Shown here: positions 25,901-47,607 of the stretch, piece by piece
How the letters are laid out: every line of letters starts with the position of its first letter
Position numbering within the stretch: position 1 is the stretch's first letter
Assembly: GCA_035362935.1 (NCBI GenBank)
Contig: DAOSEC010000001.1
Location: 71,665-135,664, forward strand
Length of the DNA stretch: 64,000 nt
Source of the DNA: Bacilli bacterium
Lineage (GTDB): Bacteria > Bacillota_I > Bacilli_A > ML615J-28 > CAG-313
Reading direction: 5' to 3'
Notes under the pieces: generated by a model
What the model was told of the DNA's origin: nothing
What the model saw: the letters and a program-made list of their open reading frames with translations, nothing else
The model's database searches: none
Translations under genes and position numbers: made by a program

Positions 25901-27396
25901 AAAACAACATAGCTTATATTGATAATACATTCTTAGACAATGTTAAGCACATCGATGAATTGATGAAACACACAGATTCCTTGAAAGACTATTTAGTTGT
26001 ACTCGAACACTCAAATGTGTTAAAAGATTATAAGCTAGACGATATCGTGAAACGAATCTTTAATGGAGAACTAACAAACAACATTAAGCATGGATTTTTA
26101 TATCAATATTTCGTTTCTTTAAGCAAAGACTTTGTTCAAACATATCCAGAAATCTTAACTCTCCAAACCGTGAATGAAGGATTGATCGAAATCGATAAGC
26201 TAACAACGTTGATTTTAGAAGAGAACAAAGCCTTATTACAATCTGCTCAAGACGCTGATTATGAGAAAATTGCTCATAGAATGAAACGAATCAAACCAAA
26301 TAATTATAACGAAATGGTAAAGATTAGTTTACATAGTAAGTATCTTTATATTGCGGATTCAGATATCTTATTAAGTGGACTTGACATTGGCTTTTTTGAT
26401 TGCGTTATCGTCGATGATGCACATATTGCAAATTCCAATAAATATGTGAAAGTCGCAGAAGCAAAACAACTCATTATCATTGGTGACAAAGATGCCAAAA
26501 GTTCGATTGCAAACAACTTAATATCTAGAATTCGACACGGAAACACAATACCTTTAAAGTTTAACTATCATAGAAACAATAAAATTCTTATGGATTATAA
26601 AAAAGAAAAAGACAACAACAAAGGAATCATTGATGACTTTTTATTAAAAGAAACCGGGTTTTCTTATATTGAACAAGAACAACCATTCGTAGATTACATC
26701 ACGCAACTGCACCACAAAGACCCGAATGCAAAAATCAATATCTATGTTGGTAACGATTTGATGAATTTTACTGTATATAAACAACTCGCAAATTATTTTA
26801 TTGAAACGGGTTTTGAAAAAGACCAAGTGTTAGATATTTTATCAAATCAAATTCGAATTTCTGATGCAAGAATTAATTATTTAAGTTTTGCAGATTACAA
26901 CATATTCTATTACAATGATTATATCGATGTTGAAGAAGTTGTGCTTGAGATTACACTGACATCTTTGATGAGTGTACACAAAGCATTTATTATTTATCAT
27001 CATATTGACCCAGAACAAACACCAATTATCAAAAAACCACTAGAAACTTTGATTAAATATATTTCAAAATATAAGAAATGGAATCTAGTAGAAGACCAAG
27101 AATCTATTAAGTATCCATTATCACAATCTCTTGTCAACAAAGGGTTCAAAGTCTATCAAGGATTTGGTAACATTGATATCATTTTCAAGAAGAAAAATCA
27201 AGTTTATGGTATTATAGTGTATAATGAGCCACAAAAACTCGACTTAGATTTGATTGAAGATTACGAAAACTATGTTAAAACTATGGCAGAACAAGGAATA
27301 AAAATATATATGATTTTTTCTAAAGATGTTTGTGAACGATTTGATCAAGTCATAGAACATATTATTTCCCAATGTGAGGTACAACATGATTCGTAA
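22927..27396 (+). CDS. large DUF4011 / Upf1-like SF1 helicase-family protein with degenerate motor motifs (architecture resembles Hhe-type defence helicases)
   Basis: The N-terminal LTCGILKWK...EIFAPIILIPIRV matches the DUF4011 L.GfL.W / PLlLvPv signature. Walker A GKLGTGKTT is at about aa 255. After a ~900-aa insert comes Walker B VIVDDAH. Motif III reads IIGDKDAKS (no Q) and motif IV reads NYHRN instead of QYRMHP. No TRxK motif VI was seen. Confidence 0.55.
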   Translation: MAKRLELDYRLRLSNHHLSNIYDSGYYLEVGNLDANLITRIINGEELSFYDVINPHIAHDSPSKIANVEYDEVLQMRYFLNKKAIDSSEKIFLTCGILKWKSSKDSEIFAPIILIPIRVVERKLNQFYLKRSGKIIHNKYLSEEIKRRMGMDIPRFDKPETVFDIDYYGEFLAKLTNSSFELGNFITYARVDYMDIDLDRNKFSPQRSFMNYDLNEIHLYPLIHLNMILPANKEQKDALIVASEGKSFAIDGKLGTGKTTTAINIIANKIHQEQSVLYISNDSYQLKAFKQRVIELKLDKYMFDFDHPCEQTESVEEDIDIRVSKESYHKLSELTHRMTNIQKILLSKVCGYRYGEIYHQIAYLSRLDKASLSYPKIIHLHRHEIEQIIPSLNQIEASLIKLVPFEKSICHSLHETLKASDEEKIKESLKQFKITQLQGQMMSKKLTDLYHIQQTNDIRLIRRLIYNFNSLKNHQPSQSWIDEDLIAYQKALKKIDELETKIKQYYLVSEELSDKFDYRITSVNMDEVITGLFGEYFKETEVEIVNLLLQYKKQLLRIALGVENNKNNFTRLKGQLNNHFSTRKVELGTLEELSELVTFLERNEFNNKWIGFAINEKTQLLRKMKQYEDYFLSYQSSYVYILDSLVKNDLTAISELIEPFNKKGKAKGNQTKHEIKRIKKYVKPHIWKDPTFNMNKLIQKLKKHIELDKEYIRQKSSYEELFGELPVRLLGLTDQLSNTINLLEKYRLNKAFPVRNYLNYFSSLSAPEQKNALKDLQTMILIQKEIEKNIEELKPFGFKVRSYHFESRLQEIASISLYLKKLYRSNDYIKSLVLKPKNNIIVDDFIAVSNDTAVKPAVLQLFDPVTIAQSNQAQVASISQNTKDGLQVNDYYYIKQLLEEKQNVLSFLEKSEFEYRYLYGSYYKGLNTEVSAIRLALEKFGKFIKMIPNPEDVIGLFRPDQYVRFQADFEQVSYFYEKWMVAFREYSKYFKENNIAYIDNTFLDNVKHIDELMKHTDSLKDYLVVLEHSNVLKDYKLDDIVKRIFNGELTNNIKHGFLYQYFVSLSKDFVQTYPEILTLQTVNEGLIEIDKLTTLILEENKALLQSAQDADYEKIAHRMKRIKPNNYNEMVKISLHSKYLYIADSDILLSGLDIGFFDCVIVDDAHIANSNKYVKVAEAKQLIIIGDKDAKSSIANNLISRIRHGNTIPLKFNYHRNNKILMDYKKEKDNNKGIIDDFLLKETGFSYIEQEQPFVDYITQLHHKDPNAKINIYVGNDLMNFTVYKQLANYFIETGFEKDQVLDILSNQIRISDARINYLSFADYNIFYYNDYIDVEEVVLEITLTSLMSVHKAFIIYHHIDPEQTPIIKKPLETLIKYISKYKKWNLVEDQESIKYPLSQSLVNKGFKVYQGFGNIDIIFKKKNQVYGIIVYNEPQKLDLDLIEDYENYVKTMAEQGIKIYMIFSKDVCERFDQVIEHIISQCEVQHDS

Positions 27397-27955
27397 AAAA
27401 GGGTCTAAAAAATTACTCTATGAGTTTGTTAGATATTTAAAAGACAATCAAGATTCAACGATTGCGATCAAGCACCGACTACTCAAACTAGATGAAGCGG
27501 ATGTTGACCTAAATGCAAAAATGTATCGCGGAAGAACTCTAATGCATTACGCAGTCATGATGAATAAGAAAAATATGATCAAATTATTTATCAAAAGCGG
27601 TGTTAATCCAAATATCGCAGATGATGACTTTTACACACCACTTCATCTTGCAATTAGTAAAAAATATTACCATGCAGCAAAAGAACTTCTACGACATGAA
27701 GTGGATTTGAACGCTGGAGCAGAATTTGAACAAACACCATTGCACATAGCTGTAATAAGTGGTAATCTAGATTTGGTTAAGTTACTAATAGACCATGGGG
27801 CAGACTATTTGATGATTGATGAAAAAAACAATTATCCGATTGATTATGCAATTGATGAAAAAGATGTTAAAATTATTAATTATCTATTAAGCAAACAATC
27901 CATCGATGATGTAAGACAAAAACAAATTGATAAAATAAATAAAGAAAAAAGGTGA
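27386..27955 (+). CDS. ankyrin-repeat protein (~4 ANK repeats)
   Basis: Repeated TPLH.A...G....V..LL..GAD.N units. A GAGGT SD lies 5 nt before the ATG at 27386. It overlaps the stop of the upstream large gene by 11 nt and ends 5 nt before cdaA. Confidence 0.8.
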   Translation: MIRKKGSKKLLYEFVRYLKDNQDSTIAIKHRLLKLDEADVDLNAKMYRGRTLMHYAVMMNKKNMIKLFIKSGVNPNIADDDFYTPLHLAISKKYYHAAKELLRHEVDLNAGAEFEQTPLHIAVISGNLDLVKLLIDHGADYLMIDEKNNYPIDYAIDEKDVKIINYLLSKQSIDDVRQKQIDKINKEKR

Positions 27956-29219: not shown

Positions 29220-30503
29220 ATGCAAACAATTATTGCAATGCTACAAGGGTTGTATCAAACCTTATTCGTACAGTATCCTGCATTTATCGCAATTATTTTA
29301 ACAACTACCATTGTATTAATGGGATTTGTTCGGATGCTAGCGTTTAAAAAAGTACCAGTATTAGAAATTGTGTTAGCAATCTTAATTGCTGGATTTTATT
29401 ATGCTCTTAGAGTTCCAATCGTTGTTCCAGCAGGACTTGTAACAAAAGCACGATATGGTGTATACATTTTTGCTTTTTTGGCAAACGTTGCAACAATCAT
29501 TCATTTTATTATCACAAAAAAAGCAGTAACCGCAACAACTCAAACTTCTGTTGATTACTTAAAAAATGCAAATGTAGATATATATGTTGAAGTTAATCAA
29601 CGCGGTAAAATCAAAGAATGCAACTTGGAGTTTTTGAGTATTGTTAATTTAGAGCGAAAAGATGTTTTAGGAAAAAAATTATTACCGCTCATTATTGATA
29701 AAGTTGACATCGTTACCTTTGATGGAGACCTCTTTAATGAATCTGTCATCAAAGCACTACATGAAAAATCAAAAAATCGTAAGAAAGAAAAAAACAATAT
29801 TCAATTTGAAATTCAGTATCGTAATAACGAAGGAAGTTTATTAACATATCACTTCTTTGAAATTCCAATTTTTGTGGGAAATCGATATGTTGGTAAAGTA
29901 CTGGTTGGTGAAAAAGAAAAGTCAACTCTGCTTGTAAGGGCACAAACAGCTCTAGGACAATTAATGGCAGATGTTAATACCGCTAAACAGCAAACATTTG
30001 CACTATTCACATTACTAAACGAACCTGCGTTCTTATTTGATCACTCAAGTAAAAAGTATTTATTATCTGAAAAGATCAGACGCGTCTTAAACATGAACGA
30101 ATCCGAGATTAATTTTGATCAGTATCTAAAAATGATGCACCCAGATGACATCGAACGATTTGTTGAAAAAAGTGCTGAAGTGAACAGTCGTACCATCACA
30201 AAGTTCACATACCGTATAAAAATTGGCAGTGAATATATGGTGTTTGAAGAAAGTTCAATTTTACTTGATGATGAAAACTCTCAAGTATCACTCATACGTT
30301 TGGTTAAAGTGAGAAAAGAAAAAGCACCAGAACCTGTTGTAGAACAAAAACATGAAGAAGTGGTTGCTCCCGTAGCTGTTGAGACGAAAGATTCCGTTAT
30401 TGTAAAACAAAAAATTGAACCAAAACCTCAGCCAAAACCAACCAATGAAGATTTACTAAAAGAACTAAAAGCACTAGAAGATCGAATTTTTACAAAGAAA
30501 TAA
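29220..30503 (+). CDS. membrane protein with PAS-like cytoplasmic domains and no recognisable output domain
   Basis: Three N-terminal TM helices. A PAS-like core follows (FDQYLKMMHPDDIERF and a preceding similar block). The C-terminus is Pro/Lys-rich. Confidence 0.4.
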   Translation: MQTIIAMLQGLYQTLFVQYPAFIAIILTTTIVLMGFVRMLAFKKVPVLEIVLAILIAGFYYALRVPIVVPAGLVTKARYGVYIFAFLANVATIIHFIITKKAVTATTQTSVDYLKNANVDIYVEVNQRGKIKECNLEFLSIVNLERKDVLGKKLLPLIIDKVDIVTFDGDLFNESVIKALHEKSKNRKKEKNNIQFEIQYRNNEGSLLTYHFFEIPIFVGNRYVGKVLVGEKEKSTLLVRAQTALGQLMADVNTAKQQTFALFTLLNEPAFLFDHSSKKYLLSEKIRRVLNMNESEINFDQYLKMMHPDDIERFVEKSAEVNSRTITKFTYRIKIGSEYMVFEESSILLDDENSQVSLIRLVKVRKEKAPEPVVEQKHEEVVAPVAVETKDSVIVKQKIEPKPQPKPTNEDLLKELKALEDRIFTKK

Positions 30504-33446: not shown

Positions 33447-33464
33447 TAAAGACAGGTGGTTAAC

Positions 33465-33920
33465 ATGAAGAAAGAATTAATAATAACATCATCAGAACAT
33501 ATGATTGAACTAGGATATAAGATCGGAAAAAAATTATTTCCAAACTCAATCATTACACTAACTGGTGATTTGGGTGCAGGAAAAACAACTTTTACAAAGG
33601 GAATTGGAAAAGCACTGAGTGTAACAGACGTCATCAACAGCCCAACTTTTACCATAATGAAAATACACCGAGGTCGTTTTAATCTATACCATATGGATGT
33701 ATATCGGTTAAATGGGGTTGGCAGTGATTTTGATTTAGAAGAGTATTTTGATTATGGTGGTGTTTGTGTCATAGAATGGGCAGAAATCATTCAATCCATC
33801 ATACCCGAAGAACACATTCAAATAACAATTAAAAATATAGATGAATCAAATAGACTGGTTGAACTATTTAGCAATCAACCAATCTATCAAAGAATCATAG
33901 AAGAGGTTATTCATGACTAA
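33465..33920 (+). CDS. tsaE: tRNA threonylcarbamoyladenosine biosynthesis protein TsaE
   Basis: P-loop GDLGAGKTTF. The ATG at 33465 has the SD AGGTGG. Confidence 0.85.
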   Translation: MKKELIITSSEHMIELGYKIGKKLFPNSIITLTGDLGAGKTTFTKGIGKALSVTDVINSPTFTIMKIHRGRFNLYHMDVYRLNGVGSDFDLEEYFDYGGVCVIEWAEIIQSIIPEEHIQITIKNIDESNRLVELFSNQPIYQRIIEEVIHD

Positions 33921-34509
33921 GCTAATAATGGATTCGTCTACATCTTTTTTATACATTTTGCTACTACAAGATGAAACCATTTTGTGGAAGTATTTGGAAG
34001 AAGGAAATAACGATCATTCTGAAAAATTAAATGTATTAATCAAAAAAATGATAGATGATACAAAGATTGAAATTTCCAATATTGATCAAATCATTGTTGG
34101 GAAAGGACCGGGGTCATACACCGGAGTAAGAGTTGGTATGACAGTTGCCAAAACGTTTGCCTGGGCTAAAAATATCCCATTATATACCTTTGGCTCTTTA
34201 GATATGATAGCGGCTTCAAAGATGAATCAAGATGGCATTTATGTAGTCATGTTAGATGCGCGAAGAGGAAACAGTTTTGTAAAAATTATTGAATCTAAGA
34301 ATCGTTTTGTTACTACATTGCTTGAAGATACATTTATGTCAAATCAAGCAATTGAAGAACTAGTTGCTTCAAAATATCCTAATGCGATTATTGTGAATCA
34401 AGTGGAACATAGTAGCTTTGATTATGAAGCTTTGGTATCTTTTCATATGATTCACAAAGTGGAAGACATATATAGTTTTGTGCCTAATTACGTTAGGAGT
34501 GGTGTTTAA
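33913..34509 (+). CDS. tsaB: tRNA threonylcarbamoyladenosine biosynthesis protein TsaB
   Basis: YeaZ-like GPGSYTG(V/L)R.G motif. It overlaps tsaE by 8 nt. Confidence 0.8.
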   Translation: MTKLIMDSSTSFLYILLLQDETILWKYLEEGNNDHSEKLNVLIKKMIDDTKIEISNIDQIIVGKGPGSYTGVRVGMTVAKTFAWAKNIPLYTFGSLDMIAASKMNQDGIYVVMLDARRGNSFVKIIESKNRFVTTLLEDTFMSNQAIEELVASKYPNAIIVNQVEHSSFDYEALVSFHMIHKVEDIYSFVPNYVRSGV

Positions 34510-34511
34510 TT

Positions 34512-34982
34512 ATGGGATTGTTTCAAAAACGATTAAAGTATCAAATTCGAGAAATGAACGAGCAAGACATCCCAACCATTACAAAACAAGAACAACTCGT
34601 TTTTGGCGATACACTAGGAGAAGACTTAATTCTTTCGGATTACAAGTTAAATCCCTATAGTCATTATTTTGTCATAGAAATTGAAAAGCAGGTAAGTGGT
34701 TACATAGGTGTTTGGATTGCACCTGAGAATGCGCAAATTATAAATTTCTACATTATACCTGAATATCAAGGAAAAGGATTTGGGTCTATGTTGTTTGAGT
34801 TTGTACTAGATCTATGTGAGATGTCAAACATCCAACACTTAACACTTGAAGTAAGAGAATCAAACACGAAAGCACAGTCATTTTATGAGCAATATGGATT
34901 TGTGTTCGTAACAAAACGAAAGCAGTATTATAGCAATGGCGAAGATGCACTTGTGCTATTAAAAGAATTCGAGGAAAAGTAA
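34512..34982 (+). CDS. rimI: ribosomal-protein-alanine N-acetyltransferase (GNAT)
   Basis: GNAT motif A YQGKGFGS. Its position between tsaB and tsaD is the usual one for rimI. Confidence 0.7.
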
Positions 34983-34984
34983 GC

Positions 34985-35938
34985 ATGATAATATTAGGAG
35001 TGGAAACTAGTTGCGATGAAACAAGTGTCGCAGTCGTTAAGGATGGAAAAGAAGTATTAAGCAATGTAGTCTTTTCCCAAATCGATATACACAAACAATA
35101 TGGAGGAGTGGTTCCGGAAATCGCCAGCAGGCATCACATTGAAAAAATCCTTTATGTTTTTGAAGAAGCTTTGAAAACATCCAACATTCAAATGGAAGAT
35201 GTTGATGGAATTGCTGTTACAGTCAATCCAGGACTTGTAGGATCTTTACTAGTAGGGTACAATGCTGCTAGTTCGCTTGCAATCGCATATAAAAAAGAAT
35301 TGATTGAGGTAGATCATATTCATGGTCATATATATGCAAACTATCTTGAAAGTGATTTTACATTTCCACTATTAGCATTGGTAGTTTCTGGTGGTCATAC
35401 TCAACTTGTGTTAATGAAAAACCATATGGATTTTGAAATCATTGGAGAAACACTAGATGACGCAGTTGGTGAAGCATATGATAAAGTAGCAAGAGTATTA
35501 GGTATTGGTTATCCAGGAGGTCCAATTATTGATGAATTAGCAAAAAAGGGGAGACCAACATACTCATTACCTATTGCTTGGTTAGATAAAGATAGGTATG
35601 ATTTTAGTTTTTCAGGGTTAAAATCGGCTGTTACCAATCTGGTAAACACATACAAGATGAAGAATATTGAAATCAATCATGAAGATTTAGCTGCAAGTTT
35701 TCAAGAAAGCATCATCACGGTGCTAGTCACAAAAACACTAAATGCAGTCAAAGAGTATAACATCAAACAAGTTGTCATCGCTGGAGGAGTTGCCGCTAAC
35801 AAGGGATTAAGACAACGAATGGAACAAGAGATTGGAAAACTCCATGGTGTTAGATTAACTGTTCCAAGTTTTAAATATTGCACAGACAATGCTGCTATGA
35901 TAGCAGTTGGAGGATATTTCTATAAAATCCATAAGTAA
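34985..35938 (+). CDS. tsaD: tRNA N6-adenosine threonylcarbamoyltransferase
   Basis: Kae1/TsaD signature GVETSCDET...SGG ... CTDNAAMIA. Confidence 0.9.
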
Positions 35939-35953
35939 GAAGGGGTGAACTTT

Positions 35954-37810
35954 ATGGCATTAAGAAAAAGAAGAGGACCATTAGGCTGTTTATTTAAATT
36001 TGTATTTACGATCGTATTTTTTGTTGTAGCAATTGTGGGTGTCATAGCCTTTATGTTTTATGATGGAAAGAACAATACTCCAGTAGAACTCTATGGCGAA
36101 GGCATTAACTTAGAAGAAGAATTAACATTATCTCTTTATGAAGCACTTGACAATCTAGATACACAAAATAAAATTCAGGTTGTGTTGACAGAAGACCAAA
36201 TCAACAAAATCATATATATGATTATCAAAGAAAGCATTAATCCTGCATATGCTCCTGGAGAAAATTGTGCCACGTCTGCGTGTGCAAATGCGATGGTAAT
36301 TGGACCACTAGGTGATGAAATTCCTCAACTAGCAGGACAAGAAGCATACATCAAAGGAATCTATGCTGAAATCATTGATGATAAGATATCAATCAGTATG
36401 CCAGTTGAAGTGATGGGGTTTAAATCCCGTATTTATCTAAGTGTTTCATTAGTGACAGTTGGAACTAATATTGAGTTAAGATTTGATTCTGTAGGAGTCG
36501 CCAAAATTAAATTAACATCAGGTATAGGACAAATGTTATTACAACCAATCATGCAAACATTTAATCTTTCAGCAGATGAAATCAATCAAAATTTTGCTGA
36601 AAAAGGATTGCCAATTGAGTTTGATATGGCAAATCTGAAAATGATATTTAAGCAAGAAGACTTACCTCAAGTTATCAATCAACTACTACCAGATTCTGGA
36701 GAGTCTAACTTGATGAAGGACTTTCTAAAAGTTATGATTGAAAACACAAACGTGGAAATGAGTTTGGTTGGAAGCACAACACCAGGGGCTGGGTCATTAA
36801 ACTTAGGTATTGATCTAGAAAAATTAAGTTTAGAAGAAGGAAACAAACAAATTCCAGCATATCTAGGAACACCATTTAATCAAACAACCTTTGTTACAAA
36901 TCAAACACAAGGATTGTTGTTTTCAACTCTAGTCGGAAACCCAAGATTCATCTTTTTGGAAAGTGATTTTAACAAAATGATCTACTCCTCCACAAGCGGA
37001 TTTGACGGATTTGGACAAACAATAACATTACCCAATAGTACACAAACATTTACTTTTGGCCTTGATGCATTATGGTTTGAAATCACACAAACCAATGTAA
37101 ATATTATCGCTCAAGTTAATATTAATGGATTTATTACAAGATTCCGCATATTAACTACCGTCGAAGATAATGACACAGATTATGTTAAATTAATGATTCA
37201 AGACAACCTTGATATTGGATTTGATTTAGGAGAAGTACTAGGAGAGTATGGAGTAGCTGATAGTCAGTTCTTAATTGATTTGATAGGACCAAGCATTCAA
37301 AGCATGAATGTGATGGGATTTGATAGTACTCTCAATGCATTTATATTAGATGCAGATGCGTTCAATCAAATGTTGAATTTAGGCGGAAGTGGAGGATCAC
37401 CTATTGGTGCTGATTCCATTCATATTCGCAATGGTAGAATTGAAATTGCAATATCAACAACTGATAGTGCATTGTCTGATGCAATCGATAATTTGTCAAA
37501 TATTGTAGGAACAGTATTAACAGGGTTTGATACAACCGTGAATGATAATATCGACTTATTTGACACAACCGGTGACCAAGCAGAGGCCGTTAACAACATA
37601 ATTGAAACACTTGAATCAATCTCGACTGTTCTAAATGATCCAGAAGCTGACTTATCGGAAGATGACATTGTGACATTAATTGAAAACTTTGGATCGTTAA
37701 CTCCTGAAAATCAAGAAGTTCTAGCGGAATTATTACAAAATGAAGCAGACGACATTGAAAGTGGAGAATTAAATGAATTGTATGAGTTGTTATTTGGACA
37801 ACAACCATAA
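35954..37810 (+). CDS. hypothetical membrane-anchored protein with an acidic C-terminal tail
   Basis: The N-terminus is Arg/Lys-rich followed by a single TM helix. The remainder is large, with a very acidic C-terminus (DPEADLSEDD...). The ATG at 35954 has the SD AAGGGGTGA. It lies 15 nt after tsaD. Confidence 0.5.
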   Translation: MALRKRRGPLGCLFKFVFTIVFFVVAIVGVIAFMFYDGKNNTPVELYGEGINLEEELTLSLYEALDNLDTQNKIQVVLTEDQINKIIYMIIKESINPAYAPGENCATSACANAMVIGPLGDEIPQLAGQEAYIKGIYAEIIDDKISISMPVEVMGFKSRIYLSVSLVTVGTNIELRFDSVGVAKIKLTSGIGQMLLQPIMQTFNLSADEINQNFAEKGLPIEFDMANLKMIFKQEDLPQVINQLLPDSGESNLMKDFLKVMIENTNVEMSLVGSTTPGAGSLNLGIDLEKLSLEEGNKQIPAYLGTPFNQTTFVTNQTQGLLFSTLVGNPRFIFLESDFNKMIYSSTSGFDGFGQTITLPNSTQTFTFGLDALWFEITQTNVNIIAQVNINGFITRFRILTTVEDNDTDYVKLMIQDNLDIGFDLGEVLGEYGVADSQFLIDLIGPSIQSMNVMGFDSTLNAFILDADAFNQMLNLGGSGGSPIGADSIHIRNGRIEIAISTTDSALSDAIDNLSNIVGTVLTGFDTTVNDNIDLFDTTGDQAEAVNNIIETLESISTVLNDPEADLSEDDIVTLIENFGSLTPENQEVLAELLQNEADDIESGELNELYELLFGQQP

Positions 37811-37817
37811 ATAGTTT

Positions 37818-37847
37818 AACAGGTGGAGAAATCCGCCTGTTTTTTTA
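37818..37847 (+). terminator. rho-independent terminator
   Basis: CAGGTGGA gaaa TCCGCCTG followed by TTTTTTT. Confidence 0.6.
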
Positions 37848-37985
37848 TGGAATCACAAAAGATATATAATAAGCATTGAAAAAGCATATTCACAATGATA
37901 TAATTAAAATATATATATTGTTGACAATCGTTATAAAAGACTGCATTAATCAACAAAAAAGCAACAATCATAGAGGGGAAAACAT

Positions 37986-39836
37986 ATGGAATTACCAGGT
38001 ATATTCAATTATGATATTATATTTGCCCTATTTTTAGGCTTTTTTGTATTGCTTGGAGCACATAAAGGTTTCGAGAAAATGTTGAAGTTAGTGTTAATAT
38101 TTATTATTCCAATTGTTGTACTTTATTACTTTGGAACAACCATTCATAAGTACATCCCGTCTTTGGAAATTTTTAATCAAGTTGTGGTATCAATTGGAAA
38201 CATCATTCCTGCTCTTTTGCCACACACCGAAGTAGTGAAATATTTGTTTATAGAAACGATTCTTTACTTAGTGATGACTCTCATATTAGCAGCTATCGCC
38301 AGCATGATAAAAATCAAGGCAAAAAAATCACTCTTAGAAATAAAAATGGTGTTATGGAAAAAAGTGGTAGGTGCGGTATTATCTGTAGTTTTATTTTATG
38401 TTTTTAGTTTTTATATGATATATCCATTACAACTTATCGGAATTAACTATCACAACAGCTATGTTGTTGAACCAATGGTTCAAAATGGTTTAGATGTCAT
38501 AAATGTTGCGCCTCTATTGAAGCATAAAGACAAAGTAATTCATGATTATGTAAGTTTTACTGAAGTAGAATCCAGTTTGCTTGGTAATGAAGCAAAACAT
38601 GCCTATCAAGAAATTGTTAAAATCCAAAATGACATATTCACATTTGAAATGAGATTTATGGATATCGTTTATCCAGCATTAAGAACCAATGCAAGAGATG
38701 CATTGCTTGCAAATAAAACCTTCGTTGATCCACTCAATCCACATAGAGGATTCGCAAGTGCTCTCATAGTAGAACAAGGTACGTTACTATACTATGATAT
38801 TTTAATCGCATTAGAACAAGAAAGCACCAGCATTGCGATCGTAAGAAGCGAATATGATACCGTGTTAAAGTATAGAAGTATGATATCCTTTTTCTATGAC
38901 ATTCTAAATGGCGAGATACTTCTTGATTATGAAGATATGACAGATGCATCCATCAAAAACGTGCTTGATTCTTATGTCACCTATTTTGAAGATAATATGA
39001 CAAATAATGTAGCATTTCAGTTAATATTAATACAAATATACGATCGTATCACAGCTTATTATCTATATGGCAACTTGATGGGATGTGCTGTAAATGAACT
39101 TACCAGTTGTGCCTTATCGATTACTCCAATTGTAGATACTCCAAAAGTGTATCAAACACAAATGAGACAAGATATTACAAATCATATCAATATTGATCGT
39201 ATTATTGCGTATGCTGTTGATGGATTCCAACCGGATGCCTTAACCACATTAGGGTTAAGCAATCAACACATTTCTAAATTGTTAAAACAAAAAGAAAGTT
39301 TTGTGCGTTATACAACTTTTTATAAAGAATCTGTAGATGGCAACGAATATAACATTAGTTTTGCTAATAAGGTAATGATGGCTATGATGAATAACATCAA
39401 ATACAAAGAATTGCTCCTACGATCAAATTTACTACGAGCTTACATGAATGATTTAGGAAGCAACTATCAAAACAAACTACAAATCACAGATAACATATAT
39501 ATATCAAGTGAAACGTTTAATATGAATATGGCACTAATTGACATCATATTTCACACTGAAATTTGGGATGGAACACAACAATTAAATGTCGGAGATATGG
39601 AACGCTTGATAGACAAAGTTCAATACTATGTTAACAATAAAATAATAACACAATCATATGCGCAAGAACTAATGAACCATTTGGTCTTTGGACAAGACAA
39701 TTATCATCAAAGTTATCTTATTGATATCATTGAAGCCAATCAAGTATCGAATGCTGCACTGAACTATTTTATCAACTCCAGTGCTACATTTATTTCACAA
39801 GAACTGAAAGATCAAATTGCTAGTTATTTACCATAG
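37986..39836 (+). CDS. CvpA-like N-terminal membrane domain protein with a ~450-aa extension
   Basis: The N-terminal DIIFALFLGFFVLLGAHKGFEKML parallels the CvpA D(I/L)I...G..KGF motif. It has 4-5 TM helices and then a long soluble domain. Confidence 0.5.
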   Translation: MELPGIFNYDIIFALFLGFFVLLGAHKGFEKMLKLVLIFIIPIVVLYYFGTTIHKYIPSLEIFNQVVVSIGNIIPALLPHTEVVKYLFIETILYLVMTLILAAIASMIKIKAKKSLLEIKMVLWKKVVGAVLSVVLFYVFSFYMIYPLQLIGINYHNSYVVEPMVQNGLDVINVAPLLKHKDKVIHDYVSFTEVESSLLGNEAKHAYQEIVKIQNDIFTFEMRFMDIVYPALRTNARDALLANKTFVDPLNPHRGFASALIVEQGTLLYYDILIALEQESTSIAIVRSEYDTVLKYRSMISFFYDILNGEILLDYEDMTDASIKNVLDSYVTYFEDNMTNNVAFQLILIQIYDRITAYYLYGNLMGCAVNELTSCALSITPIVDTPKVYQTQMRQDITNHINIDRIIAYAVDGFQPDALTTLGLSNQHISKLLKQKESFVRYTTFYKESVDGNEYNISFANKVMMAMMNNIKYKELLLRSNLLRAYMNDLGSNYQNKLQITDNIYISSETFNMNMALIDIIFHTEIWDGTQQLNVGDMERLIDKVQYYVNNKIITQSYAQELMNHLVFGQDNYHQSYLIDIIEANQVSNAALNYFINSSATFISQELKDQIASYLP

Positions 39837-39863
39837 ACACTTTTTGTAAGGAGGTGAAGAAAA

Positions 39864-40891
39864 TGGAATTTCAAGATGGTTTAGACCTATCCGAAATCGT
39901 TAGAAGACAGGAACTTCAGGCTAAGATTAGAAAGAACCGTAAAGTGGATTTAAAAACGTTCAAAGATCGTATTGTTAGCGATCCAATGATGATTAAAAAT
40001 GTTGCAGGTCAAAATGAAACGACGTATGAAGAAAAAACGTTGTTCTTGAGAACCAATCCATTTTCTTATGATCCAAGCAAATCGAAGTTTGTTGTTGACT
40101 CCATTGAGGAATATATGATAACAGTTAAAGGAAAACATATGACATTTGGGAATCTAGTAAGAACCAAAGAGTTACCAACAAACATAAAAAAGAAAAATAT
40201 AAAAAAACACTTAAAAAACTGGATAGGTGAGTACGAAAAAACGAAGGATGAAATGTTAGACCTGATTGGAGCGAAAGTCGATGTGATTGGTGATATCGAG
40301 ATAAGCAAATTTTCGGTTGGAAAAGTAATATTCTATATTATTATGTTTATACTCAGTGCTATCATAATGTTCCGACACGATCTTGTTGTTAACTTATTAG
40401 GAAGATTAGCATTTATGAGAAATCCTATCCAAATGTTTTATCAAATCTATGCATCAAGCAGTTTCATTCCAATCATTGGTAGTGCAATGATATATGTGTT
40501 AATTGCATCGCTCTTATACTCCATCTATCACAACACTGTGTTAACCGATTTTAGAAATGACTATCGCCAGTCAAAGATTACACTTAATCGTTCGAAATCT
40601 ACCGTGACAAGAGATTTCTTATCAAGAGCGAACCGAGTATACAACTACTATATGAAAAATTATAAAAGTAGAAAGCTGAAACCTTATCCGATGGAACAAG
40701 TCATTTCGAAAGAAAAAGGGCTTGAATACATGAATCAGTTATCAGACTCGACGATTAAAAAAGCATCTCACTTTAAAAATCAAAAAAAGAAGTATCGATT
40801 CTACTCGTGGGTATTTTCCATATTACCTATTATTGCGGTAGCAGGATTTTATGGATATCTCATTTATGAAATAGCGAAGACTATATTTTAG
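39864..40891 (+). CDS. hypothetical membrane protein
   Basis: A ~150-aa N-terminal soluble part followed by 3-4 TM helices. SD AAGGAGG precedes the ATG at 39864. Confidence 0.45.
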
Positions 40892-40903
40892 GAGGACAGC
40901 TAT

Positions 40904-43123
40904 ATGAGTAAAGATAAAGAGAAAAAAGATATCATAGAGGCCATAGTAACTGCCAAAAAAACGAAAAGTGAAGCAGATCGTAAACAAGATTTAGAAGACA
41001 TCAAGAAAATTCTAGAACAAAAGGGAAAGAAGCAATCAACAGCCCATCATGAGAATGCCAAAGAAATTGAGCAACTGCGTACAAAAGTAGAAGACATTAC
41101 AGTGAAAGCAAGAAGCGAACTAAGTAGCAAAGATGCTATGCTAGAAAATGCTAGACTAGCAAATGAACAATTATCTAAGAAAATTGATGCATTAAATGAA
41201 AAACTACAGCTTGTACAACAAGAACAAATAGCACGAGAACAAAAGATATTAGAAGAAGCGAAAAAAGTTGAAGTTGAAAAAAAAGAGTATGTAGAAAAAT
41301 CACAATATGAACAGTTAGCAAAACACATTGAACAAAAATACAAGGAAGAAATGGCAGAATTAGAGAAAGTCTTACAACAAAAAATTAAAGAAGTAGAAGA
41401 CTTAAAGGTAAGTTTAGTAAAAGAAAAATCATCTACAATACCTGTTATTAACTCTGACCATCAAACCATTTCAGAGATCAAGCAAGATTTACAGTCAAAA
41501 AACATGTTAATTAGCAACCAAATGAATATGATAATTGGATTACAAAACCAAATTTTATCTAACTCTAAAGAAATGAGAGATTTTCAGTCTCGATATGATG
41601 CATTATCTAAAGCAGAAGCTAGTTTTCACCATAACCCACAAGACATAACAAACCAACAACAATATGTTCAGGCGGTAGAAAAGTTTAGTGAAAAGGCTGT
41701 GATCAAAGACACCCCAGTTAAAATTGATTATACAAAATCATTTAAAGAACGACTTGATAACATTTATCAAACGATACTTACGGAAGTAGTATCAGTCAAA
41801 GAAAACGAAATTCGCATGATTGAGAAACAGCTTAGCAGTTTTAAATCGAAATCTGATGATTTAACACTTAGACTAAAGCAAGAAAAATCAACCATTGAGC
41901 GTCATAATACAATTGATCAAGAGATTAAAAGTGTGAAACAACAATACGAGCAAGAAAAAGATGAAATGATTCGCCTAGAATCACGCCGTGAGGAGTTTCA
42001 AACGTATATTCAAAGTATTAAATCACAACTTCATATGAATATGGGAGAGTCTGGCAAACAAGCTGCGATCGCTAGATTAAAAGAAGCAAGAGATGGCTTA
42101 AGCCGGTTAGAGTATTTGACAAATACTCTACCAGGATTATTAACTAAAATTGAGCAATTAACGAAAACCAAAGAAAATATTCATGATCTATTTGTACGCA
42201 TTCGCTATCATGAAGACGGGTTGCTTGAATCTGAATATGAGTTAGAACAAATCAGTGAAGAAGTTGTAGAAATTCGACTTGACTTAAAAGAAAAACAAAA
42301 ACGAATCACGTCATTAAAAGCAAAATTACTAGAAGTACACAAAAAATACATTGTTAAGATAAAAGAGAAACAAGATGAGTGTGCTGGAAGAGATGCAAAT
42401 TGTGTTGATATTGAAGTAGAACAAGAACTTCTTATATTAATCAATCAAGCAAAAGCTGAACTAGAAAATATCGTTACTAGTTTTATAACAAAAGAAAATC
42501 GCAGAGTTGACTTAATGAACCGAATATCAAACCTAAAGAGTCAACGCGAAAAGCTCGATGAGTTATCAGAACTACTTGCAACTTTGGTAAAAGAACGAAG
42601 CGATTTAGAAACTGAAATTCAAGCGATGACAAATTATTTAGATAAAAGTGATGATTTGATCGCAAGCAATGAAGAATACCAGGCAATCATTTCGAAACGT
42701 CAAGAAATAGTGCAAGCGATTGAACAAACAGCCAAGGAGTTAGAATTATCTGTTGTTTCACTCAAGACATTGATACGAACTCGTAAAGATTATCAATATG
42801 ATCCATATGGAGCAAAGAAACTCGCTGAAATTGATCGAAACATCGAACTCACAAAGAACAAAGTTGAAGATGCGAAACTACGTTTACAAGAACTAGAATA
42901 TGAGAAGTCGAATATGATTCAAGATGATAGTTTAAAGGAATACGCAGCGATTGTTGAAAATCGAAAACGAATCAATGAACTGATTGATTTTAAGCAAACA
43001 AGATTAGATGAAGTAAATTTAAAAATTGAAGAAACGGATTTAGTCGTCAACGAAATTAATGATAATTTCCAAGAAATTGAACGACTAGAACAATTATTAG
43101 CAGAAGATGAAAATAGTTATTAA
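40904..43123 (+). CDS. 739-aa K/E-rich coiled-coil protein
   Basis: Heptad-rich, E/K/Q-dominated sequence throughout with no TM segment. AGGAGG SD present. Confidence 0.55.
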   Translation: MSKDKEKKDIIEAIVTAKKTKSEADRKQDLEDIKKILEQKGKKQSTAHHENAKEIEQLRTKVEDITVKARSELSSKDAMLENARLANEQLSKKIDALNEKLQLVQQEQIAREQKILEEAKKVEVEKKEYVEKSQYEQLAKHIEQKYKEEMAELEKVLQQKIKEVEDLKVSLVKEKSSTIPVINSDHQTISEIKQDLQSKNMLISNQMNMIIGLQNQILSNSKEMRDFQSRYDALSKAEASFHHNPQDITNQQQYVQAVEKFSEKAVIKDTPVKIDYTKSFKERLDNIYQTILTEVVSVKENEIRMIEKQLSSFKSKSDDLTLRLKQEKSTIERHNTIDQEIKSVKQQYEQEKDEMIRLESRREEFQTYIQSIKSQLHMNMGESGKQAAIARLKEARDGLSRLEYLTNTLPGLLTKIEQLTKTKENIHDLFVRIRYHEDGLLESEYELEQISEEVVEIRLDLKEKQKRITSLKAKLLEVHKKYIVKIKEKQDECAGRDANCVDIEVEQELLILINQAKAELENIVTSFITKENRRVDLMNRISNLKSQREKLDELSELLATLVKERSDLETEIQAMTNYLDKSDDLIASNEEYQAIISKRQEIVQAIEQTAKELELSVVSLKTLIRTRKDYQYDPYGAKKLAEIDRNIELTKNKVEDAKLRLQELEYEKSNMIQDDSLKEYAAIVENRKRINELIDFKQTRLDEVNLKIEETDLVVNEINDNFQEIERLEQLLAEDENSY

Positions 43124-43766
43124 AGAGGAATTAACCAGAATATTACCCAAATTTAATGTCATTGCTTACACACTCGATGTACAAGTTACATCGAGTGATG
43201 TTATTGAACCATACTTGTTGGAACTAGAGGCACAAATTAAAAATCATTATACTTTAGAAGAGGTACTTACAATACCTCTGATTAAGGAAGCAAGAGATGG
43301 ATACAAACGATTAGGAAAAGATCCAAGTAGGTACCGACTAGCGGTAGAGTCACTATATCGAAGATTGGTCAAAGGAAATGATCTTTATCGTATTAACAAT
43401 GTCGTTGATGTTGGGAATGCATTATCAATTATAACAAAACGAAGCGTATGTGTAGCAGATGCTGAAAAAATTGATGGAGACATCATCATTCGAATTGGTC
43501 AAGAAAGCGATATATACGAAGGAATTAATCGAGGAGTACTAAATGTCACAAACATACCGATTTATGAAGATAAGATTGGCCCTTTTGGGTCAACTACATC
43601 TGATACTCATCGTACTGCAATTACACAAGAAACAAAACAAGCACTCGTTATGATTATTTGTTTTAGCGATACAGAGCTAGAAGAGCATGCTTCACAATTA
43701 CAAAAATTATTTCAAATATATGCTTATTCCAAAAATATAAAACAAATTCCAGTGTTTAGAAAGTGA
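43107..43766 (+). CDS. B3/4 domain protein (PheT editing-domain-like, stand-alone)
   Basis: The [12 protein letters not shown]...[12 protein letters not shown]...E segment matches the B3/4 domain motif n.vVD.tNy......p.hafD..ki.g.i.vr. It overlaps the upstream ORF end by 17 nt. Confidence 0.55.
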
Positions 43767-43773
43767 GGACATT

Positions 43774-45405
43774 ATGGATCAAACATCCAATTTTATCAAA
43801 ACCATTATGGCTGAAGATTTAGCTAGCAAAAAACATACAGAAATTATTACAAGGTTTCCTCCTGAACCGAATGCTTATTTGCATATAGGTCATGCTCGAG
43901 CAATCATTACGAATTTTGAACTTGCAAGAGTATTTGGAGGGAAAACAAATCTAAGATTTGATGATACAAATCCAGCAAAAGAAGATGTTGAGTTTGTTGA
44001 GGCAATCAAAGAAGATATAAAATGGTTAGGATATACTCCACACAAAGTGTTGTATGGGTCCGACTATTTTGAGGAAACTTATCAAAGAGCAGTTCGCCTT
44101 ATCAAAAAGGGACTTGCCTTTGTTTGTGATTTGTCACAAGATGATATGACAAAATATCGTGGTACACTTACCGAACCCGGAACGAACTCTCCTTATAGAA
44201 ACCGTAGCGTTGAGGAAAACCTAACCCTTTTTCAAGCAATGAGAGAAGGAAAATTCAAAGATGGAGAAAAAGTCCTAAGAGCAAAAATTGACATGAGTAG
44301 CCCGAACATGAATATGCGTGACCCGGTTATCTATCGGATTTTACATATTCACCACCACAACACCAAGGATGCTTGGTGTATCTATCCAATGTATGATTTA
44401 GCTCATCCAATCCAAGATGCGATTGAAGGCATCACACACAGTTTGTGTAGTCTTGAATATGCGGATCATAGACCGCTTTATGATTGGGTGGTAGAACATT
44501 GTGAAATGGAACTAGTTCCTCATCAATACGAATTTGGACGTTTAAACATTACAAATACCATAATGTCAAAACGCTATTTAAAGCAACTTGTGGATTTAAA
44601 GAAGGTGAAATGGTATGATGACCCGAGAATGCCTACGTTAGTTGGATTGCGCAGAAGAGGGTTTACTCCAGATGCAATTCGTAACTTTATTTTAGATACA
44701 GGGCTTTCGAGAACCAATTCGACAACTAGCTATGAAATGTTAGAACACTTTTTGCGGGAAGATTTAAAATTAAAAGCCAAACGTGTGATGGCAGTAATTG
44801 ATCCATTAAAAGTTGTAATTACCAATTATGAGCATGGCATTGAGTATTTAGATGCACATAATAATTCAGAAAATGAAGAATTAGGAACAAGAAAAATTGC
44901 ATTTTCAAAAAATCTATACATTGAGCGAGAAGACTTTATTGAAGAAAAACCAAATAAGCATTGGAAGCGTTTGGCCAAAGGTGTTGAGGTTCGTCTAATG
45001 AATGCATATTTTATTACCTGCAATGACGTTATTTATGATAGTGATGGATCAATTAAAGAGATTCATTGTACCTACGACCCACTAACAAAAAGTGGATCAG
45101 GATTTAATGAACGAAAACCAAATGGAACGATACATTATGTAGAAGCATCAACGGCAATCGAAGCAACATTTAATTTATTTGACTCACTGCTGATTGATGA
45201 CGAAAGCAAAGAATCTTTCTTAGATCGAATCAACCCTAATTCATGGACAGTTCAAAAAGGATATGTAGAAACATCTTGTTACAATACACTACCAGAAGAT
45301 AAGTTTCAATTTGTTCGAAATGGATATTTTAGTACCGATTATGATTCGAAGGAAAACGCCTTGATATTTAACCGTACCGTTAGTCTCAAGTCTTCGTTTA
45401 AATAA
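43774..45405 (+). CDS. glnS: glutamine--tRNA ligase
   Basis: RFPPEPN.YLHIGHA HIGH region and LRFDDTNP. A 543-aa length fits GlnRS rather than the shorter non-discriminating GluRS. Confidence 0.8.
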
Positions 45406-45411
45406 TGAATC

Positions 45412-47514
45412 ATGACTGTTGATTATCGTTTATTAAACAAACCACAATTGCAAGCGGTACAAGATACAGAAGGACCAGTCATGGTATTTGCCGGGGCAGG
45501 AAGCGGAAAAACAAGAACACTCACTTACCGTGTTGCTTATATGATTGGCGAAAAAAACATTCCACCACACAAAATATTAGCAATAACTTTCACCAACAAA
45601 GCGACCAAAGAAATGAAAGACCGGTTATATCGGTTACTTGGACCGGTTGCTTCCTCAACAAATATTTCGACATTCCATAGTTTGTGTGCTCGAATATTGC
45701 GTTCGGAAATTACCCACTTAGGATATTCAAAACATTTTGAAATCATTGATGAGGATGATCAACTAAAGGCACTAAAAGAAGCAATGAAACAAGCCAATCT
45801 AGACATCAAAAGGTTCTCAGCAAAGGGACTTCTCGCAAAAATCAGCAACTTTAAAAATGGAGTAGATGATCTCATTGAACTATTTCAAAAACCATATCAT
45901 GCTTATCAAGCGTATTTAAAGCAACACAGCTTGGTTGATTTTGATGATTTGCTTGTACTAGTTCATGAACTATTCTCCACCCATCCTGAGATCTTAGAAA
46001 AATATCAAGCCTATTTCCATTATGTGTTAGTAGATGAGTTTCAAGACACCAATGACATTCAATATGAAATCGCTAAAATGATTGCCGGTAAACGGTCTAA
46101 TTTGTTTGTTGTTGGTGATGACGATCAAAGCATTTATAGTTTTCGCGGTGCTAATGTTGCAAACATTAAGCTTTTTCAACGTCATTATCCACAAGCGAGA
46201 ATGTACATCCTTGATCAAAACTATCGTTCGACTCAAACTATTCTCGATGGAGCGAACCGACTCATATCAAACAACCAAAACAGACAAAAGAAGTCGTTAT
46301 GGAGTGATAAAAAAGGGATGGTAAACGATGTTGCTTTTTTTCAAGGGTATGATCACATTGAAGAAGTAAACTATGTTGTAAGTAAGATTCGAGAATATTA
46401 CCGTGAAGGATATAACTATGATGAGATTGCGGTACTGTATCGATCGAATGTGATCTCTCGAAACTTTGAACTTGCTTTAATTCAAGCAAGAATTCCCTAT
46501 AAGATTTATGGTGGGTATTCGTACTTAAAACGCAAAGAAGTAAAAGATGCTTTGGCATATTTGCGTTTGATTATCGATCACTCTAACATCGTAAATTTTG
46601 AACGTATTATTAACGAACCATCAAGAGGTATTGGAGACAAGACAGTAGCTAAAATTATTGATAATGTAAACATAAATGATATTGGCTTGTTTGATGCGAT
46701 TCGTTCGATGAAGGATGAAGTGCCAAAAAGCAAATATCAAGCATTAAATGATTTCATATATATGATTGAAGAATTGTCACTAAAAATCAACCATGTAAAA
46801 CTAGATGAGTTTTTTGATGAAATGATTGATAAAACAGGATATTTAGATGCGATAGAACAAGACGAGAATAAAGATGATCGCATTCAAAACTTAAGCGAGC
46901 TAAAAAGTGTGTTGGTTGAAATTGATAAAATGAGCGATGAGACACTCACGAATGTTGAAAAGTTACAAATTGCATTCGATGAGATTCTACTCAGTGAATC
47001 AGTTCAAGAAGAGCGTAACAAACCAAACGAAAAATCAATAACATTATCAACAATTCATTCTGCGAAAGGATTGGAATTTCATGTCGTGTTTGTTGTTGCG
47101 TTAGAAGATGAGATTTTTCCAAATCGTTACCGCGTGAACGAAGGAGAAGCAGACATCGAAGAAGAACGTCGTATCGCGTATGTTGCTGTTACAAGAGCAA
47201 AAGAAAAACTAATTCTAACCAATGCGAAAAACCGACTACTGTATGGTAGAACGATGCGACACCGTCCATCTTCATTTTTAACAGAATACGCAACAACCAC
47301 GAATGTTCAAACCGAGTATAAAAAAGAAGTTAAAGAAACAACTTCTAATGACAAAAACGACTATGTTTTAAGAGCGGGAGACCGAATTATTCATAAAGAT
47401 TTTGGCGAAGGAATTGTGGTTTCATGTGATGGGACAATCGTTCAAATCTTATTCCATCGTGACTCTAGCTTAAGAAAATTTATGGCTAATCATACGTCAA
47501 TTACAAAAATATAG
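45412..47514 (+). CDS. pcrA: ATP-dependent DNA helicase PcrA/UvrD
   Basis: The full SF1A motif set is present: AGAGSGKT, VDEFQDTN, GDDDQSIYSFRGA, QNYRS, and VTRAKE near the C-terminus. Confidence 0.9.
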   Translation: MTVDYRLLNKPQLQAVQDTEGPVMVFAGAGSGKTRTLTYRVAYMIGEKNIPPHKILAITFTNKATKEMKDRLYRLLGPVASSTNISTFHSLCARILRSEITHLGYSKHFEIIDEDDQLKALKEAMKQANLDIKRFSAKGLLAKISNFKNGVDDLIELFQKPYHAYQAYLKQHSLVDFDDLLVLVHELFSTHPEILEKYQAYFHYVLVDEFQDTNDIQYEIAKMIAGKRSNLFVVGDDDQSIYSFRGANVANIKLFQRHYPQARMYILDQNYRSTQTILDGANRLISNNQNRQKKSLWSDKKGMVNDVAFFQGYDHIEEVNYVVSKIREYYREGYNYDEIAVLYRSNVISRNFELALIQARIPYKIYGGYSYLKRKEVKDALAYLRLIIDHSNIVNFERIINEPSRGIGDKTVAKIIDNVNINDIGLFDAIRSMKDEVPKSKYQALNDFIYMIEELSLKINHVKLDEFFDEMIDKTGYLDAIEQDENKDDRIQNLSELKSVLVEIDKMSDETLTNVEKLQIAFDEILLSESVQEERNKPNEKSITLSTIHSAKGLEFHVVFVVALEDEIFPNRYRVNEGEADIEEERRIAYVAVTRAKEKLILTNAKNRLLYGRTMRHRPSSFLTEYATTTNVQTEYKKEVKETTSNDKNDYVLRAGDRIIHKDFGEGIVVSCDGTIVQILFHRDSSLRKFMANHTSITKI

Positions 47515-47607
47515 TGAGGTTTTCTCGCTATATTTTTTGTATTTGGAAGTCGATTTCAATTGTTCAACAACAAACAAAATGGTATAATAAGTAATAGAGG
47601 GATTACT

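Follow-up and report, generated by a model that had tools for sequence, protein, structure and literature searches.

What are four uncharacterised genes doing in the middle of a row of housekeeping genes, and do they belong together? The question is raised by a 64,000-nucleotide (nt) stretch of DNA from a Bacilli bacterium (GenBank assembly GCA_035362935.1, contig DAOSEC010000001.1, positions 71,665 to 135,664), which at its full length is referred to here as the window. In it, five tightly packed open reading frames (ORFs) on the forward strand sit between tsaD and glnS, with pcrA and ligA beyond glnS. A first-pass annotation, made from the sequence alone, took the first four of these, here called P1 to P4, for a single block of membrane and coiled-coil genes inserted into the housekeeping row and followed by a stand-alone B3/4-domain gene. 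The gene inventory stands: the ORFs and independent gene calls on identical public metagenome contigs reproduce the same genes at the locus, four after tsaD on the same strand and then the B3/4 gene before glnS. The inserted block does not stand. P1 is a narrow, lineage-specific gene that is split off from the others by a conserved terminator and promoter, and P2 and P3 are an old pair that travels with the B3/4 gene and glnS, even in Haloplasmatales that lack an adjacent tsaD. From sequence comparison, what is new here is the P3 protein family and a conserved module, linked to the CvpA family, in an uncultured clade related to the Mollicutes.

Close relatives carry the same locus. A word-indexed search of 5.8 billion proteins returned no more than four clusters for each of P1, P2 and P3, and in the species concerned ('Bacilli bacterium' metagenome-assembled genomes, MAGs) the gene order is identical, tsaD-P1-P2-P3-P4-B3/4-glnS. 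Absence from relatives had been named as a possible sign of horizontal acquisition; the block is present in them. Compared with two related species, TsaD of the window is 80 and 73% identical, P3 72 and 70%, P1 67 and 62%, P4 60%, and P2 49 and 41%, levels which indicate that P1 to P4 are all real genes under constraint. P3 is 70–83% identical within the window's lineage and so almost equals TsaD in conservation. Identity between clades is 19–30% for P2 and P3, compared with 53–72% for TsaD, B3/4 and GlnS.

With the B3/4 protein as query, a scan of one reference genome per GTDB species gave 80 loci, which were annotated with profiles of the window's proteins. P3 is present in 40 of 79 (34 of 58 when only loci with 7 kb or more of upstream sequence are counted), and in these 40 it either adjoins B3/4-glnS on the upstream side or is separated from it only by a coiled-coil gene. 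As a rule a CvpA-like gene comes before it, and a gene for a coiled-coil protein of 330–1680 amino acids (aa) that lacks transmembrane (TM) segments comes after it. The loci fall into three groups. The first is a large uncultured clade, labelled among other things Bacilli, Acholeplasmatales, Mollicutes, Tenericutes BinA124 or 'Coprobacillus sp. CAG:698'; its loci read from tsaD through an optional surface protein, a CvpA-like protein, P3, a coiled coil, B3/4, glnS and pcrA to ligA. The second group is the Haloplasmatales, among them Haloplasma contractile, several Haloplasmataceae MAGs and Inordinaticella fortuita. The third, with Turicibacter, Clostridium, Romboutsia and others, has B3/4 with neither P2 nor P3. 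The position between tsaD and glnS is kept in the uncultured clade but not in Haloplasmatales, where tsaD is not adjacent. Seven loci with distant P3 proteins share the order tsaEB-rimI-tsaD, an optional exported protein, a CvpA-like protein, P3, a long ORF with no Pfam match, B3/4, glnS and pcrA, with ligA following pcrA except in L013. This presence and shared order in distant relatives refute a recent insertion or horizontal gene transfer: P2-P3-(P4)-B3/4-glnS is an ancient vertical synteny. Origin from a phage or a defence island was likewise rejected: searches of the locus proteins against PHROGs and PADLOC gave two trivial coiled-coil matches only, the GC content of the locus genes (0.32–0.34) lies inside the window's range, and the synteny is kept in relatives.

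Within the locus, the break falls after P1. In an intergenic alignment of four related species the terminator hairpin that follows P1 is preserved through compensatory changes, as is its T-run, and the promoter ahead of P2, which scores 11 of 12 hexamer matches with the TG present, has both hexamers nearly invariant. Beyond this point the genes of the window are separated by gaps of 26 nt (P2-P3), 12 nt (P3-P4), -17 nt (P4-B3/4), 7 nt (B3/4-glnS) and 6 nt (glnS-pcrA), with the start of B3/4 overlapping the stop region of P4 by 17 nt. From the conserved terminator and promoter between P1 and P2, and the short gaps up to a terminator past pcrA, we infer two transcription units, tsaE-tsaB-rimI-tsaD-P1 and P2-P3-P4-B3/4-glnS-pcrA. 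In front of P2 and glnS, a search for a T-box or another leader RNA gave no Rfam match at E ≤ 1. Across loci, the gap between P2 and P3 lies between -38 and +37 nt, and that from P3 to the next gene is mostly 2–24 nt.

Sequence searches leave most of these proteins without a name. Pfam matches are found in only two of the five ORFs, a weak Colicin_V match at the N terminus of P2 and B3_4 in the last gene, and searches of Pfam, NCBIfam, PADLOC, PHROGs and PDB sequences gave no further useful match, so that P1 to P4 match no characterised family above cut-off, as the first-pass annotation had held. P3 agrees with its description as a protein with a soluble N-terminal part followed by TM helices, three of which are predicted at about residues 152–170, 200–218 and 316–338, and its net charge of +23 is concentrated in the cytoplasmic stretches. 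A HMMER profile of P3 run against 1.84 billion representative proteins found 67 proteins, 35 of them at E ≤ 1e-10, in a family whose members are about 270–350 aa long (nearly all 300–350 aa), match end to end, and come from MAGs labelled Bacilli or Acholeplasmataceae. In the family alignment Pro66, Phe67 and Trp120 are invariant and Asn65 and Tyr262-Tyr263 nearly so, with an N-P-[FY] motif in the cytoplasmic N-terminal part. Neither Pfam nor NCBIfam has a model for the family, and by these comparisons P3 founds an undescribed protein family.

An AlphaFold2 model of P3 built from a 38-sequence alignment is confident (pLDDT 82.7, pTM 0.65) and has no fold match in the PDB at E ≤ 1e-3. In the model, residues 1–51 are disordered and are followed by a small alpha/beta unit (52–100) bearing the NPF motif, a long basic helix (106–141), a TM helix (152–170) and two short helices. 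The second TM helix runs on as a long cytoplasmic helix (201–266), and the chain ends with a helix at 285–306 and the C-terminal TM helix at 308–341. We rejected the idea that the NPF motif occurs only where P4 exists, as P3 proteins of Haloplasmatales have NPY or NPF at the same place. One homolog, P0049 (L097, 10001–11773), has a 270-aa N-terminal extension rich in lysine, glutamate and arginine; it was rejected as a Rosetta-stone fusion of P3 and the coiled-coil protein because its locus retains a gene for a coiled coil, interrupted by a gap in the assembly. Other members of the family bear low-complexity N-terminal extensions rich in glutamine, asparagine and tyrosine. Such extensions suggest that the cytoplasmic N terminus tolerates long disordered or coiled additions.

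P2 brings the CvpA family into the locus. Residues 10–157 match Colicin_V (PF02674) over profile positions 2–127 of 144, with E 8e-5 and a score of 23 bits that lies below the cut-off of 29.3, and hydrophobic segments at 5–23, 35–53, 87–105 and 127–145 agree with the CvpA-like N-terminal domain of four TM helices noted in the first pass. This domain, at about residues 1–150, is followed by a C-terminal domain (C-domain) of ~460 aa with invariant Cys367 and Cys375. Because the loops at 24–34 and 106–126 are basic, the C-domain is acidic and the two cysteines are invariant, the C-domain is predicted to lie outside the cell, where it is probably disulfide-bonded. P2 would thus have the four-pass topology and outside C terminus predicted for E. 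coli CvpA, whose periplasmic C terminus is of variable length (bioRxiv 10.1101/2020.09.25.314492). Jackhmmer searches seeded with P2 showed that the CvpA-like domain and a C-domain of ~400 aa are homologous across the uncultured clade and Haloplasmatales, with a match of 1.5e-66 to the C-domain of H. contractile in the last round. Other sublineages have at this position a plain CvpA of 167–199 aa that carries Pfam Colicin_V and is linked to P2 at about 1e-40. Positional orthologs of P2 in L015, L016 and L097 carry Colicin_V matches, and the P2-seeded profile recovers them at 1e-37 to 1e-41.

The further proposal that P2 is a second paralogue of the membrane anchor of a giant protein elsewhere in the window found no support. 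BLASTP of P2 against this 2746-aa protein gave only E 0.12–0.34, a profile of 41 N termini of the P2 family had no match in it at E ≤ 10, and it contains no Colicin_V match at E ≤ 1e-3. The N terminus of the giant protein (ORF at 5925–14165) is hydrophobic and is not recognised as CvpA-like by the P2-family profile, and its sole Pfam match is a short stretch of DUF3502.

P4, described earlier as a K/E-rich coiled coil free of TM segments, has 17% lysine and arginine and 20% aspartate and glutamate (37% charged), a net charge of -21 and an acidic C-terminal end. Strict heptad-like 28-mers hold 21% of its residues, compared with 1% in shuffled sequences, and it has neither a Walker A motif (G-x4-GK[ST]) nor head domains. 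Its ortholog in L003 is 60% identical. Where the slot between P3 and B3/4 is filled in other loci, it always holds a TM-free protein of 330–1680 aa that is rich in lysine and glutamate and poor in proline and glycine. Among these slot proteins, 49 interlink by phmmer, and P4 of the window and its L003 ortholog stand apart from them. An hhalign comparison of P4 with the conserved C-terminal half of the other slot proteins gave a probability of 1.2%, and the reversed control 0.3%. P4 has position and composition only in common with the other proteins of the slot.

How might these proteins fit together? The reading we prefer, and hold tentatively, is that P2 and P3 join in a membrane complex to which a cytoplasmic coiled-coil scaffold is tethered, with P1 an unrelated lineage-specific surface protein. 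P2, P3 and P4 would then make up one membrane-associated assembly, expressed constitutively with the housekeeping genes. In this assembly P3 would be the constant core, placing a strongly basic, helical cytoplasmic region beneath the membrane, and P2 would partner it in the membrane and show a large domain on the outer face. P4, which is long and fast-evolving, would dock on the cytoplasmic part of P3 and build a membrane-tethered scaffold or spacer, in effect a membrane skeleton. We prefer this explanation because the adjacency of the genes is conserved, their spacing is tight, the topology and charge of their products are complementary, and their position is kept despite fast divergence; the long cytoplasmic helices of the P3 model, continuous with its TM helices, count in the same direction. 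The predicted topology, with P1 and the C-domain of P2 outside the cell and with the whole of P4 and the basic P3 domains in the cytoplasm, also agrees with the part of the first-pass annotation that proposed an envelope-associated apparatus, but tests for membership in the EzrA, DivIVA and SMC families fail.

Several observations weigh against this tethered scaffold. Haloplasmatales have P2-P3-B3/4-glnS with neither a coiled-coil gene nor an adjacent tsaD, and a few loci of the uncultured clade keep P3 and the coiled-coil gene with no CvpA-like gene beside them, so the three parts are separable. The window's P4 shows no homology to the other slot proteins by phmmer, jackhmmer or hhalign, and its likeness to them could be a coincidence or the result of replacement by a different gene. 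CvpA itself has no known function (bioRxiv 10.1101/2020.09.25.314492). The whole row is conserved, including pcrA and ligA, which makes adjacency alone weak evidence of common function. Finally, physical interaction of P2, P3 and P4, a scaffold role, and a tie to cell shape, division or envelope homeostasis are what we infer, a step beyond the gene anatomy, predicted topology, gene order, spacing, operon signals and family distribution observed.

The same points feed a rival explanation, in which the genes are functionally unrelated and simply neighbours in a housekeeping row that rearranges slowly: P2 would act alone in envelope homeostasis or transport, P3 would be an unrelated membrane protein, P4 a generic coiled coil, and B3/4 and glnS would serve translation. 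The entire row tsaEBD ... B3/4-glnS-pcrA-ligA-uvrA is conserved with no common function, and the absence of P4 from Haloplasmatales and of P2 from some lineages shows the parts to be separable. However, P2-P3-B3/4-glnS is intact in Haloplasmatales despite the different tsaD and pcrA neighbours, the genes overlap or lie very close together, and P2 and P3 hold their position at the low between-clade identities given above. We regard this as the main alternative, only slightly less probable than the tethered scaffold. More ambitious than the tethered scaffold, and improbable as it stands, is the possibility that P2-P3, with P4-type proteins where present, is an unrecognised membrane-skeleton system of Mollicutes-related Bacilli that sets shape, rigidity or the site of division. 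Its carriers would be the Haloplasmatales and the uncultured clade labelled RFN20 or 'Acholeplasmatales', and a protein of the CvpA family, together with a new three-TM adaptor, would connect the outer face of the membrane with a long coiled-coil lattice in the cytoplasm.

Haloplasma contractile is described as wall-less, and the presence of P2-P3 in it argues against a role tied to peptidoglycan synthesis. Some loci of the uncultured clade have Amidase_3 and Spore_YunB genes nearby, and taken with the wall-less Haloplasma this argues that the pair is not peptidoglycan-dependent. H. contractile (its locus here is from a MAG, L069) and Inordinaticella fortuita strain 4B, the record of which is not labelled as a MAG, are presumably the cultured carriers of P2-P3.

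P1 stands outside this module. As described before, it is predicted to have a single TM segment, at residues 16–34, with the N terminus inside and a large acidic ectodomain; its net charge is -57, of which about -28 falls in the extremely acidic tail (residues 501–618). The ectodomain carries conserved Cys105 and Cys110. Alignment of P1 with its relatives, which are 59–96% identical, shows conservation of the acidic helical tail from about residue 505 to 618, ending in G-E-L-x-x-L-Y-x-L-L-F-G-x-x-P. A scan of 185,579 species genomes (GTDB) found no relative, and JGI metagenomes contain 2 loci only, both from the same lineage. An AlphaFold2 model from a 5-sequence alignment was unusable (pLDDT 38.5). 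The secondary-structure pattern and a colinear, non-significant self-alignment by hhalign (E 0.08, probability 0.7%) hint at two tandem alpha+beta modules; internal duplication of the ectodomain was rejected at these values.

The slot that P1 occupies, between tsaD and the CvpA-like gene, is variable (loci L011–L063). P1 fills it in the window's lineage; it is empty in some lineages, holds LRR_5/Big_2 lipoproteins of 338–632 aa in many, and in L015, L032 and L033 holds a Cpn60_TCP1-like protein of 403–432 aa. P1 has no homology to the proteins that fill the slot elsewhere (best E 0.8), and we prefer to read it as a surface protein peculiar to its lineage that has come to fill the changeable position behind tsaD, outside the core module. 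A filled slot usually contains an exported protein, P1 with its signal anchor or the lipoproteins, and P2-P3 could instead be an export or envelope-stress device for this upstream protein. Such a device would follow the original 'colicin V production' phenotype of CvpA, the first link made for this protein; it was later tied genetically to the extracytoplasmic (sigma-E envelope) stress response (bioRxiv 10.1101/2020.09.25.314492). However, many lineages have P2-P3 with an empty slot, the Cpn60_TCP1-like protein found at three loci has no TM segment, the conserved terminator parts P1 from P2, and export gives P4 no role, all of which make this explanation quite improbable.

At the other end of the module, the last gene encodes the stand-alone B3/4 protein expected there, which passes Pfam B3_4 (PF03483) with 52.5 bits against a cut-off of 29.3 (E 6e-14, profile positions 3–139 of 174) and is 53–62% identical across the clade. 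It is directly adjacent to glnS in 57 of the 79 reference-genome loci; these include loci of the uncultured clade, of Haloplasmatales and of a single Turicibacter, with none from Clostridium or Romboutsia. This adjacency suggests a role for the B3/4 paralogue that is linked to GlnRS, for example in tRNA binding or trans-editing. It also raises the possibility that P4, and perhaps P3, works with B3/4 and GlnRS, for example by tethering translation or tRNA machinery to the membrane. Such a tether would account for the translational coupling of P4 to B3/4, and the gene 5' of B3/4 overlaps or abuts it (-17 to +5 nt) in 25 of 40 loci. Yet Haloplasmatales have no coiled-coil gene before B3/4, which still adjoins glnS there, and seven P3-to-B3/4 gaps of 68–114 nt in the pooled list are probably the Haloplasmatales loci. 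Short overlaps are common in compact operons, and the sequences of P3 and P4 have no RNA- or tRNA-binding feature. A translation tether is thus very unlikely. An inverted repeat, perfect over 11 bp and with a loop of 5 nt, lies inside the B3/4 gene at 43171–43197 (codons 22–31). It resembles a terminator and was rejected as one, having no T-run and not being conserved in L003, L011 and L014; it is probably fortuitous.

The features of the locus are collected in Table 1. For the genes 5' of P1, the Pfam labels TsaE, TsaD and Acetyltransf are found on an identical public contig.

Table 1. Genes and putative transcription signals between tsaE and the end of pcrA, in window coordinates.
Feature	Position	Strand	Basis
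tsaE, tsaB, rimI, tsaD (operon 5' of P1)	33456..35938	+	ORF list; Pfam TsaE, TsaD, Acetyltransf
tsaD	34985-35938	+	ORF list
P1, 618 aa, predicted bitopic	35954..37810	+	ORF list; TM prediction
Intrinsic terminator 3' of P1, 10-bp stem then T-run	37818..37848	+	Hairpin; 4-species alignment
Putative promoter of P2 operon, TTGAAA, 17 nt, TG-n-TATAAT (extended -10)	37876..37904	+	4-species alignment
P2, 616 aa, CvpA-family four-TM domain and predicted extracytoplasmic C-domain	37986..39836	+	Pfam, jackhmmer, TM prediction
P3, 342 aa, predicted three-TM	39863..40891	+	Profile search, family alignment, AlphaFold2
P4, 739 aa, predicted cytoplasmic K/E-rich coiled coil, TM-free	40904..43123	+	ORF list; heptad test
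Stand-alone B3/4-domain gene, 219 aa	43107..43766	+	Pfam B3_4
glnS	43774-45405	+	ORF list
glnS and pcrA up to terminator (47505-47537)	43774..47537	+	ORFs, terminator prediction

Two other places in the window deserve mention. At 22927–27955, the gene for a protein of 1489 aa that matches DUF4011 and helicase-like domains (ResIII/DEAD) is followed by an overlapping gene for a 193-aa protein with ankyrin repeats, an unusual find in bacteria. At 29220–30503, upstream of ispD/ispF, lies the gene for a protein of 427 aa that has TM helices at its N terminus, two PAS-domain matches below threshold and a tail rich in proline and lysine.

Whether or not P2, P3 and P4 build a scaffold, the locus provides a clean definition of the new conserved P3 family and corrects the reading of an inserted block. 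It also gives a CvpA-type protein a fixed genomic partner, the P3 family, and in the majority of lineages a long coiled-coil protein as neighbour, and so suggests concrete interaction partners. CvpA-family proteins are present in most bacterial phyla and their mechanism is unexplained; the membrane-skeleton reading, if true, would offer a first mechanistic handle on this widespread family. A membrane scaffold, if confirmed, would join the small set of cytoskeleton-like systems of wall-less or reduced Firmicutes.

The proposed scaffold has partial counterparts among known systems. P4 weakly matches the coiled-coil arms of SMC and archaea-specific SMC-related protein (ASRP) models (NF045487, TIGR02168; E 2e-6, 26.7 bits), but unlike the SMC-like ATPases SMC, ASRP, RecN and SbcC it scores only 10–27 bits in NCBIfam, where the cut-offs are 300–730. 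It matches no Pfam family at E ≤ 1, and none of P1 to P4 matches the Pfam or NCBIfam models of EzrA, DivIVA or GpsB at this threshold. The general plan of a long cytoplasmic coiled coil with a membrane anchor is like that of these division proteins. In contrast to them, anchor and coiled coil belong to different polypeptides here, and P2-P3 also occur with no coiled-coil gene at all; EzrA combines an N-terminal TM helix and ~500 aa of coiled-coil repeats in one chain, whereas P4 has no TM segment.

For P3, the nearest likeness is to DUF2207_C (PF20990), which 6 of 38 family members and some longer variants match weakly over TM1-TM2, the best at 27.9 bits; every score lies below the gathering cut-off of 33, and the P3 of the window has no match. 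DUF2207 is itself a domain of no known function. P2 has a parallel in its architecture in MarP (Rv3671c) of Mycobacterium tuberculosis, in which a CvpA-like four-TM anchor is fused to an extracytoplasmic serine protease domain. As in MarP, the CvpA-type membrane domain of P2 would display a large domain on the outer face; unlike the protease of MarP, this domain matches neither a protease nor any other family in Pfam, nor any sequence in the PDB. The N-terminal part of P2 is like CvpA in its four TM helices, with a conserved aspartate in TM1 and then a Gly-x-x-K/R-G motif, but P2 differs from CvpA in its extra C-domain of ~460 aa, which fits no family and is conserved from the window's clade to the Haloplasmatales.

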